A stretch of 29,075 nucleotides of DNA from the IMG/VR virus record IMGVR_UViG_2541047746_000007. One strand, 5' to 3'. The position numbers and the translations under genes were made by a program. The notes below the pieces were generated by a model. It did no database searches. It worked only from the letters and a program-made list of their open reading frames with translations, and was not told the DNA's origin. Shown here in pieces: positions 16,516-20,751 of the stretch; the stretch's first letter is position 1, and each line of letters starts with the position of its first letter. The DNA is from a virus. Lineage: Duplodnaviria > Heunggongvirae > Uroviricota > Caudoviricetes.

Positions 16516-16815
16516 AAAAATTCCTTAATACTGATAACTGGGCGCACTATACACACGTTCCTGAAGAAAGCTATAGTTTTTTGATGGGGTTGAAGATGGC
16601 TGGATGTCTAAAATAAACATTGCTTCATATGTTCAACTATGCGTTAATGATTGCGTCGGTTTGAAGAACAGACGATATACGAAGTAGTTTACTAAAGCAG
16701 TTCTCATTTCAGGTGTTATTCACTTATTCCTTCTTTGAGTCTCTCCAATTAAGTACGAAGTCGTTTCTGTTATACAAGCCATTTATGCCGAAAGGCTCAA
16801 GTTAAGGAATGTAGA

Positions 16816-17031
16816 ATGTCAAATAAAATGACTGGTTTAGTAAAATGGTTTAACGCTGATAAAGGTTTTGGCTTTATTTCTCCTGTTGATGGTAGTAAAG
16901 ATGTGTTTGTGCATTTTTCTGCGATTCAGAATGATAATTTTCGAACCTTATTTGAAGGTCAAAAGGTTACCTTCTCTGTAGAGAGTGGTGCTAAAGGTCC
17001 TGCAGCAGCAAATGTCATAATTACTGATTAA
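16816..17031 (+). CDS. cspB: Cold-shock protein, CspB-like
   Basis: 71 aa; [38 protein letters not shown] carries the RNP1/RNP2 motifs of CspA-family proteins. RBS AAGGAA. Confidence 0.8.
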
Positions 17032-17312
17032 AATTCATAGTTTGTCTGTATACGATAACGAAGAAGGCTGATGCCTGAGTGGAGATACAGACAGAGTGGT
17101 GAATATTGGATCTCTTTAATAAATAGTAAGGAGGTCCAATACATGAAACAATGGCCAGCATATTTGGCAATAACTTAATCAGGAAAAGTATGCTAACCAT
17201 TGTGGTGAAGTGCAGGTTTGCTGCATGAATAGTTTTACAGCAGAAGCTAACTGCTGGCATAGCAAAACAAAGTGCGTAAGTGGATGACTCCCACAAAAAG
17301 TACCACAATATT

Positions 17313-17394: not shown

Positions 17395-17565
17395 TCAAGC
17401 TACAGCTTTAAGATTTGTCTGGAATACTTTGTTGCAATGAGGGCAGATCAAAAGGGCACCTTTTTGTACTCTTGAAAAACTGTGTTCTGACTCTTGGGTG
17501 CAGTTTGGGCAGGAACATTTAACGAGATAATTACGGCGTGATTTTGAGTCTTTACGTTCTGACAT
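17395..17565 (-). CDS. Small zinc-ribbon protein (Cys4, Com-like architecture), function unknown
   Basis: ATG at 17565 with RBS AGGAAAA; 56 aa with CSCPNC...(18 residues)...CPHC. The track ORF (to 17616) is over-extended. Confidence 0.5.
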   Translation of the reverse strand: MSERKDSKSRRNYLVKCSCPNCTQESEHSFSRVQKGALLICPHCNKVFQTNLKAVA

Positions 17566-17783
17566 AGGCTTTTCCTGTATAAATGGCCGTATACAGTACA
17601 CTAAATATGAAAACATATCTCGTATTATTATTTAATATATGATTTTCTTTTAAAATAATTACCCACATTTTTAATGTGTCTGTTTTTTAGCGCCGTTGAG
17701 AACAACGTTTGCTATAAAAACTAACCCATAGACTCCGATCTTTTCAAACATATTGCACCATCTGTGTACATCGGGGTGAGGAT

Positions 17784-19904: not shown

Positions 19905-20267
19905 ATTAATATTAAATCGGATTATTTTTAGCGCTGAATGTGAAATTTAAATAAAAAGGACTCTTCCATGAGTCAAAATCCTTGAAATCTTAAGGGTAAG
20001 ATAAAAGGTCATTAGACAGAATGACACGTTTTATTAATAAATAAAGCTATTGTTTCATTCGTGTGTTTTTCTTTACAAAAGTAATCCTTGCTATGGTTGG
20101 TTAATCATGCGTTAATGGTGTTCTGGTTTGTTACAAAATTATCTGAAGCAGTCATTGTTATAATTTTATTATTTGTACCTCTTGAGATTTCCTTGTTGGT
20201 TTTTCTCTCTGATATTTTTTTTCGGACCATTCTGCCCAAGGGCTAACTTCTTCAAAAGGTAATAATG

Positions 20268-20480
20268 ATGTCTAACAAAATGACTGGTTTAGTGAAATGG
20301 TTTAACCCTGAAAAAGGTTTTGGTTTCATCACGCCGAAAGATGGTAGCAAAGATGTGTTTGTGCATTTCTCAGCTATTCAGAGCAACGATTTCAAAACGT
20401 TAACTGAGAATCAGGAAGTCGAATTTGGTATTGAGAACGGACCTAAAGGCCCTGCAGCTGTTCATGTAGTGGCACTTTGA
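20268..20480 (+). CDS. cspI: Cold-shock protein CspI-like
   Basis: 70 aa; [42 protein letters not shown]...[13 protein letters not shown]. Long AT-rich 5' leader upstream, typical of csp genes. Confidence 0.85.
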
Positions 20481-20685
20481 GGTAGAAAATATTACAAACC
20501 ATATTCACTTTAGATGCCCGTGTTGCCATGGTTCTCAGTATAGAACATCATCTTTTGATGTTTCTGACAGAAATCCTTTCGGGGCAAAATGTATCTTTTG
20601 TAAATCAATGATGATTACATTTGATAATATTTCACAATACTTAAATGTTAGCCATCTGTCGTTAGATTTAAGAAAGTGAAAATGA

Positions 20686-20707
20686 AGGCTCCTTCGGGAG
20701 CTTTTTT
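20686..20707 (+). terminator. Rho-independent terminator downstream of cspI
   Basis: GGCTCC-TTCG-GGAGC followed by TTTTTT. Confidence 0.6.
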
Positions 20708-20751
20708 GCTTAGTGTCTAGTCGATGGATACTCACATATTACGGTAACATT

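Follow-up and report, generated by a model that had tools for sequence, protein, structure and literature searches.

The prophage gene ynfQ, a member of the YmcF family with an annotated ATT start codon downstream of cspI

Escherichia coli K-12 MG1655 carries two small, related genes beside cold shock genes: ynfQ (b4724), which lies in the Qin prophage 10 nt after cspI, and ymcF (b4723), which lies 10 nt after cspG, and the annotated CDS of each begins with ATT. The K-12 annotation of this pair reportedly goes back to a Mol Cell 2018 paper on cold-shock ribosome profiling. The name calls for some care; the "ynfQ" of VanOrsdel 2018 is a different 37-aa ORF situated between ydfJ and ydfK and is not evidence for the gene considered here, and the main text of Weaver 2019 does not mention the ynfQ and ymcF genes. 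Published expression data describe ynfQ as "Qin prophage, cold shock induced", its fold changes following those of cspI (PMC11228462); cspG, cspI, ymcF and ynfQ are co-regulated (PMC11728337; PMC13058169), and in the RNA-seq tables ynfQ moves with cspI and ymcF with cspG (PMC11228462, PMC11728337, PMC13058169).

Two other E. coli genes with near-cognate starts serve for comparison. In reporters AUU, AUC, AUA and CUG initiate at 1-2% of AUG, and as of 2016 infC and pcnB were the only confirmed non-canonical starts in E. coli (bioRxiv 10.1101/063800). Cold induces infC, and IF3 discriminates against its AUU start; this discrimination against AUU is weaker in the cold, and AUU mRNAs did worse at low temperature in vitro (PMC5499595). 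Because AUU mRNAs are cold-sensitive in vitro, the AUU itself is unlikely to be a cold-favoring signal. With infC and pcnB, ynfQ shares a conserved near-cognate AUU in a gene that is linked to the cold response. However, unlike these two genes, the ymcF family has a start that alternates between ATT, ATC and ATG among genera, and the start of ynfQ sits in a junction where the stop codon of the upstream gene falls within the Shine-Dalgarno (SD) sequence.

Identity, family and conservation of ynfQ

The locus compared here with these systems lies in a window of 29,075 nt, the whole stretch of DNA that was analyzed (IMG/VR record IMGVR_UViG_2541047746_000007), in which the genes follow a Qin-like lambdoid prophage order: cspF, cspB, ynfU, essQ, rrrQ, rzpQ, cspI, ynfQ, ynfN, gnsB. 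Elsewhere in the window Rfam reports isrK at 7874-7950 and a C4 antisense RNA at 7975-8062, both typical of lambdoid/P4-like prophage regulatory regions, as well as a second cspA thermoregulator at 16655-17094 that covers cspB. The open frame at issue is on the plus strand at 20470-20679; it begins after a TAG at 20467-20469, closes at the TGA at 20677-20679 and encodes 69 residues, and it has no ATG, GTG or TTG ahead of its first Cys, the 13 codons that precede the ribbon included. Both the placement of an open frame between the cspI stop and the terminator and the lack of a canonical start before the ribbon, as described in the original prediction, are therefore borne out. The two genes concerned are as follows.

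20268..20480, plus strand: cspI coding sequence, 70 aa by the RefSeq start, stop TGA at 20478-20480 (WP_000066495.1 on identical DNA; ORF list); an additional in-frame ATG is at 20265
20491..20679, plus strand: ynfQ coding sequence, 62 codons plus TGA, encoding a putative small zinc-ribbon protein of the YmcF family (RefSeq, Pfam PF23641, 131 homologs, pN/pS)

The open frame is an ordinary annotated gene, ynfQ, with an unusual, likewise already annotated, start codon. On identical DNA (CFT073, FDAARGOS_497) the RefSeq CDS maps to 20491-20679 and starts with ATT; the gene is named ynfQ (also labeled ymcF), and its product, WP_071526745.1, is called "cold-shock protein" or "cold shock small protein YmcF". 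Many complete E. coli genomes contain identical copies of the 561-base segment that surrounds the ORF (2146 E. coli records). Gene, name and ATT start are thus already known from RefSeq and the K-12 annotation. The K-12 YnfQ differs from the present one at four residues; position 10 nt after a csp gene, ATT start and length of 62 codons are common to the present gene and K-12 ynfQ and ymcF, and the two K-12 proteins share with the present protein the core HFRCPCCHGSQYRTS.FD..NP.GAKCIFCKS. The true paralog of ynfQ is the chromosomal ymcF downstream of cspG, with 66-69% identity.

The ynfQ product matches Pfam PF23641 (YmcF-like) over its whole length, residues 1-62 on profile positions 1-62, at 116.5 bits (cutoff 27; E = 6.2e-34). 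A search of 5.8 billion proteins gave 131 homologs, nearly all from Enterobacterales and mostly of 62 aa, and the family is narrow, since an exhaustive profile search among 1.84 billion representative proteins gave only 42 clusters at 50% identity; PHROGs yielded no meaningful family for the ynfQ product. Of ~276 genome loci found, 80 were retrieved, and the ORF in the genome loci has 62 codons, or 64 in a minority. Among 69 unique sequences (the present ORF plus motif-filtered loci of different species, codons 2-47) mean pN is 0.104 and mean pS 0.776, a pN/pS of 0.13 with synonymous sites saturated, and dN/dS against Citrobacter is 0.03-0.08. An alignment of 45 sequences has invariant F7, C9, P10, C11, C12, G14, Q16, R18, S20 and D23, and likewise P29, G31, A32, K33, I35, F36, C37, K38 and M41; the columns of C9, C11, C12, H13, C34 and C37, residues that are all in the present protein, are invariant or at least 90% conserved. 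ATT, junction sequence and 62 codons are all kept in 80 of 80 viral contigs fetched, which are near-identical E. coli prophage copies only and do not widen the phylogenetic breadth. Judged from these alignments, ynfQ is a conserved coding gene under strong purifying selection across the Enterobacterales.

The ATT start codon and its alternatives

Two elements of the junction bear on the start of ynfQ.

20479..20482, plus strand: Shine-Dalgarno sequence GAGG of ynfQ, overlapping the cspI stop codon, with an 8-nt spacer to the start (sequence)
20491..20493, plus strand: ATT initiation codon of ynfQ (RefSeq CDS start in CFT073, FDAARGOS_497 and K-12; aligned codons)

The order GAGG, 8 nt, ATT is that of an infC-type AUU start, and among 45 unique csp-coupled regions the start is ATT 41 times and ATC 4 times; by position, the start codon in these regions is A in 45, T in 45 and then T in 41 or C in 4, and the SD has A(-11) in 45, G(-10) in 37 and G(-9) in 45, with a spacer that is variable. 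Of 76 copies (the present ORF plus 75 genome loci), 56 carry ATT in the alignment column of codon 20491, 4 carry ATC (three Salmonella lineages and Siccibacter) and 16 carry ATG (the Klebsiella oxytoca group, Raoultella, C. sedlakii and Silvania); ATG also occupies this column in six further stand-alone loci (Enterobacter hormaechei, K. aerogenes, Leclercia, Kluyvera, Lelliottia and K. quasipneumoniae). In Dickeya lacustris an intact csp gene is followed 10 nt later by ATT, and in the Morganella phage IME1369_01 the csp stop is followed 10 nt later by an ATG in the same column. Examples of start codon positions among the numbered loci (L005-L094) are L032:1501, L085:701 and L093:690. The Kosakonia, Pseudescherichia and E. 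coli ynfQ types have an in-frame stop 9-13 codons upstream with no canonical start in between, and several database proteins of 70-71 aa are gene-caller extensions into the csp 3' end from spurious upstream starts.

Translation from the ATT at 20491 is thus supported, because orthologs align ATG, ATT or ATC at this codon and because the SD is conserved while its spacer varies. This ATT, following a GAGG box, had been put forward in the original prediction as a possible non-canonical start, and that part of the prediction agrees with the RefSeq and K-12 annotation and with the aligned ATG of orthologs. It had also proposed that intact homologs with a canonical start be sought in other genomes, and such homologs exist, with ATG in Klebsiella, Raoultella, Enterobacter, Leclercia, Kluyvera, Lelliottia and the Morganella phage.

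Other accounts of the frame can be weighed on the same alignments. Two ATT codons precede the ribbon, and initiation could be imagined elsewhere in the frame, for example at the second of these, 20503 (Ile5). However, 20503 is 20 nt from the GAGG, too distant for SD-directed initiation; the ATG of orthologs aligns at 20491 instead, and codon 5 is CTC (Leu) in ymcF, all of which makes a start other than 20491 exceedingly unlikely. A different account, in which the original prediction had envisaged recoding coupled to cspI, would make YnfQ a C-terminal extension of CspI that is produced by a +1 frameshift at CUU UGA G or by readthrough. CUU UGA is the slippery site of the prfB +1 frameshift, and like prfB the cspI terminus, GCA CUU UGA GGU, has CUU UGA G (20475-20481), with a +1 frame (UUU GAG GUA ...) that is the frame of ynfQ and is stop-free before the ribbon. 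The likeness to prfB goes no further, however. The SD-like stimulator is absent 3 nt upstream of CUU, where the sequence is GUAGUGGCA, and the site is not conserved among csp-ymcF junctions: of the 45 unique csp-coupled regions only 5 contain CTT TGA, and the codon before the csp stop varies (CTC 11, CGC 12, CTT 11, GTA 4, CGT 5, CAC 1). Nor is the frame relation constant; the spacing is 9 nt in eight Kosakonia-type regions, so that ymcF there shares the frame of csp, and elsewhere ymcF is in the +1 frame. The stretch from the csp stop to the ATT is not conserved as protein, and stand-alone orthologs that lack an upstream csp gene start with ATG at the aligned codon. Recoding is therefore highly improbable as the source of YnfQ, since neither the csp-ymcF frame relation nor the last csp codon is conserved; a minor frameshift product in E. 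coli is conceivable but is not needed to explain ynfQ.

The 13 codons that lack ATG, GTG or TTG before the ribbon, and the absence of the ORF from the annotation of most phage records, could also be read as the marks of a pseudogene, a former zinc-ribbon gene that has lost its start codon and is no longer translated. Decay of this kind, which had been one of the readings originally offered, is refuted by a pN of only 0.10 against a saturated pS of 0.78, by the nearly constant 62 codons (intact in all 80 viral contigs; 62, in a minority 64, in genome loci) and by the full-length Pfam match. The five Cys are moreover invariant or nearly so, the same ATT/ATC arrangement is kept from Escherichia to Dickeya, and both RefSeq and K-12 annotate the frame as a CDS; that ynfQ is a pseudogene is almost certainly wrong. 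The remaining claim, that the ORF parallels and is a paralog of the protein encoded at 17395-17565, concerns YnfU (PF23499, NF038384; 56 aa), and would have both genes derive from one zinc-ribbon ancestor duplicated within the prophage. Both proteins are small (62 and 56 aa) and have two Cys knuckles with SF between them, in CxxC...SF...CxxC layouts with spacings of C12 to C34 in YnfQ versus C22 to C41 in YnfU; both genes adjoin csp genes in the present prophage, Shimwellia blattae has ynfU and a ymcF-like gene side by side with a csp gene, and both proteins give weak matches to NCBIfam ECs_2282_CxxC (E = 0.002 and 0.068), which are far below cutoff. However, the two belong to separate Pfam families, PF23641 versus PF23499, that do not cross-match, and the PF23499 and NF038384 profiles give no match to the ynfQ ORF. 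The pairwise alignment of the two peptides that had been suggested as a check yields no BLASTP alignment at E <= 100; hhalign of the 45-sequence YmcF and 19-sequence YnfU alignments gives a probability of 5% over 8 columns that span one CPxC knuckle, and reciprocal hmmsearch of YmcF and YnfU reaches 2.5-4.8 bits, even with databases as small as 19 and 45 sequences. The proposed paralogy thus fails BLASTP, profile-sequence and profile-profile tests alike, and common descent of ynfQ and ynfU by duplication in the prophage is very improbable; small metal ribbons that are unrelated to each other can both have a CxxC...SF...CxxC layout. The structure model of YnfU (pLDDT 59) is too poor for a fold comparison with YnfQ.

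What YnfU shares with YnfQ is that it is a small, Cys-rich, putative zinc-binding protein encoded in the same prophage beside a csp gene; unlike YnfQ, it has a canonical ATG start, is encoded on the opposite strand and is here uncoupled from csp. The mechanical ORF call for ynfU (17395-17616, minus strand) has 73 codons from an upstream ATG, and RefSeq, Pfam and NCBIfam fit the 56-aa form that starts from 17565. On the Shimwellia blattae chromosome the adjacent csp, ynfU and ymcF-like genes (L089:1-900) are associated with no obvious prophage. The YnfU and YmcF families, two unrelated groups of small Cys-rich proteins, thus recur together near csp genes.

Predicted structure of the YnfQ protein

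The most conserved part of YnfQ coincides with its predicted metal-binding core.

20506..20616, plus strand: conserved metal-binding core (predicted), residues 6-42, HFRCPCCHGSQYRTS.FD....NP.GAKCIFCKS.M (conserved columns, AlphaFold2)

AlphaFold2 with the 45-sequence alignment gives a mean pLDDT of 74.9 and about 90 in the core (block means of 89 for residues 11-20, 89 for 21-30 and 92 for 31-40), the model having two short strands and a C-terminal helix of lower confidence. YnfQ is predicted to be a 62-residue protein of zinc-ribbon type with five conserved Cys and one His, modeled here as a generic zinc ribbon. Its AlphaFold2 core is matched best, if weakly, by the zinc ribbons of TFIIE-alpha, TFIIB and ribosomal protein eL43, with which it has in common two Cys knuckles carried by a small beta-sheet; a 2026 review gives YnfQ a rubredoxin-like model that includes a metal site (PMC13348028). 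The segment CPCCHGSQY (20515-20541, residues 9-17) resembles Rieske box II of cytochrome b6f (CPCHGSQY), and the Rieske-like PDB matches (E = 0.04-0.9) are not significant. Five conserved Cys and one His exceed the needs of a Cys4 zinc site, and YnfQ may hold zinc, iron or an Fe-S cluster. The fold suggests a metal-stabilized ribbon of a type that docks onto nucleic acid or onto components of transcription or translation, and the favored suggestion is that YnfQ may act in cold shock as a metal-stabilized adaptor that contacts RNA or the machinery of transcription or translation.

The probable cspI-ynfQ transcript and the choice of start codon

Three further features frame the two genes.

20110..20526, plus strand: cspI mRNA leader and coding region, a cspA-type thermoregulator whose 3' end overlaps the ynfQ start (Rfam RF01766)
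20685..20707, plus strand: terminator-like hairpin with stem GGCUCC/GGAGCU, UUCG loop and T6 tail, 5 nt past the ynfQ stop (sequence, folds)
20682..20720, plus strand: ynfR remnant of 12 codons, ended by TAG at 20718-20720 and overlying the terminator (PGAP pseudo-CDS, "too short")

The thermoregulator match at 20110-20526 scores 110.1 bits (gathering score 78; E = 1.3e-27), and the hairpin at 20685-20707 appears in both the minimum-energy and the centroid folds, a pattern scan reporting the same stem-loop on the complementary strand. The K-12 gene downstream of ynfQ, ynfR (b4749), encodes 21 aa, and its product has been detected by epitope tagging (PMC6001520); here a TAT-to-TAG change cuts the ynfR ORF to 12 codons. 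The cspI stop is 10 nt upstream of ynfQ, and a csp gene is likewise directly upstream in 50 of the 75 genome loci. A conserved RNA structure that would hide the SD was considered and set aside; the fold of the single sequence pairs the GAGG with cspI codons, and the alignment fold does not support this, RNAalifold on 23 diverse junctions giving no SD-masking helix and only a 5-pair hairpin inside csp.

Because the cspA-type thermoregulator match spans cspI and a terminator-like hairpin follows ynfQ, the simplest transcript would be cspI-ynfQ; co-transcription with cspI would in turn make ynfQ cold-induced. On such an mRNA ribosomes would start at the AUU either by binding afresh to the SD or once they have finished cspI, that is by translational coupling, and termination-initiation coupling is favored since the cspI stop is inside the ynfQ SD, 10 nt from the start. 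The near-cognate AUU or AUC would limit YnfQ to a small fraction of the amount of Csp, which is massively expressed, and IF3 and temperature may modulate the expression of YnfQ from its AUU. Taken as a whole, the explanation that the frame is a prophage-borne gene of the ymcF family, ynfQ, that starts at ATT 20491 and follows cspI on a cspA-type mRNA is regarded as highly probable.

What may be new here is that the start codon follows coupling to csp. In lineages that are not independent, ATT or ATC is the start wherever an intact csp gene ends 9-10 nt upstream in the genome loci (50 of 50), as well as in the present locus and in Dickeya, whereas loci that lack an intact csp gene have ATG at the aligned codon in 22 cases from about 9 lineages; in Shimwellia, also without an intact upstream csp, an ATG lies 6 codons upstream of the aligned codon. 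Exceptions occur on both sides. The Morganella phage IME1369_01 has ATG with an intact csp, so that ATG is not strictly barred after an intact csp gene, and nine loci from 2 lineages (Pseudescherichia and Atlantibacter) have ATT without one. At one Citrobacter sedlakii locus (L014:1100-1520) csp has lost its stop through a deletion at its 3' end and the csp frame runs into an ATG-started ymcF, an arrangement that may be a csp-ymcF fusion or a csp pseudogene. Since the lineages are not independent, the pattern of start codon and csp is a lead and not a result. A tentative explanation, which we hold to be possible but somewhat doubtful, is that the weak AUU or AUC is kept by selection specifically where ymcF or ynfQ joins a highly expressed csp gene through the stop-in-SD junction, acting as a fixed attenuator or as an IF3- or temperature-sensitive valve that would keep the YmcF:Csp ratio low, and that where csp is decayed or absent the gene would take AUG and a stronger SD of its own.

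The start codon also has consequences for annotation. The ORF also occurs, for the most part without annotation, in phages such as mEp460, 2H10, HannyBb and Tritos, a gap that is due to its ATT start; in the phage records LR597641.1, NC_049950.1 and PV340573.1 the identical or near-identical ynfQ ORF lacks a CDS annotation. Gene callers that are limited to ATG, GTG and TTG miss ynfQ or add false N-terminal extensions. The locus carries little weight as a discovery, the gene, its name and its ATT start being already in RefSeq and in the K-12 annotation. The ymcF/ynfQ family is nevertheless among the very few conserved AUU- or AUC-initiated genes of enterobacteria, on a cold-shock thermosensor mRNA, and it offers a convenient natural case of how near-cognate starts, translational coupling and IF3 set protein ratios in cold shock.
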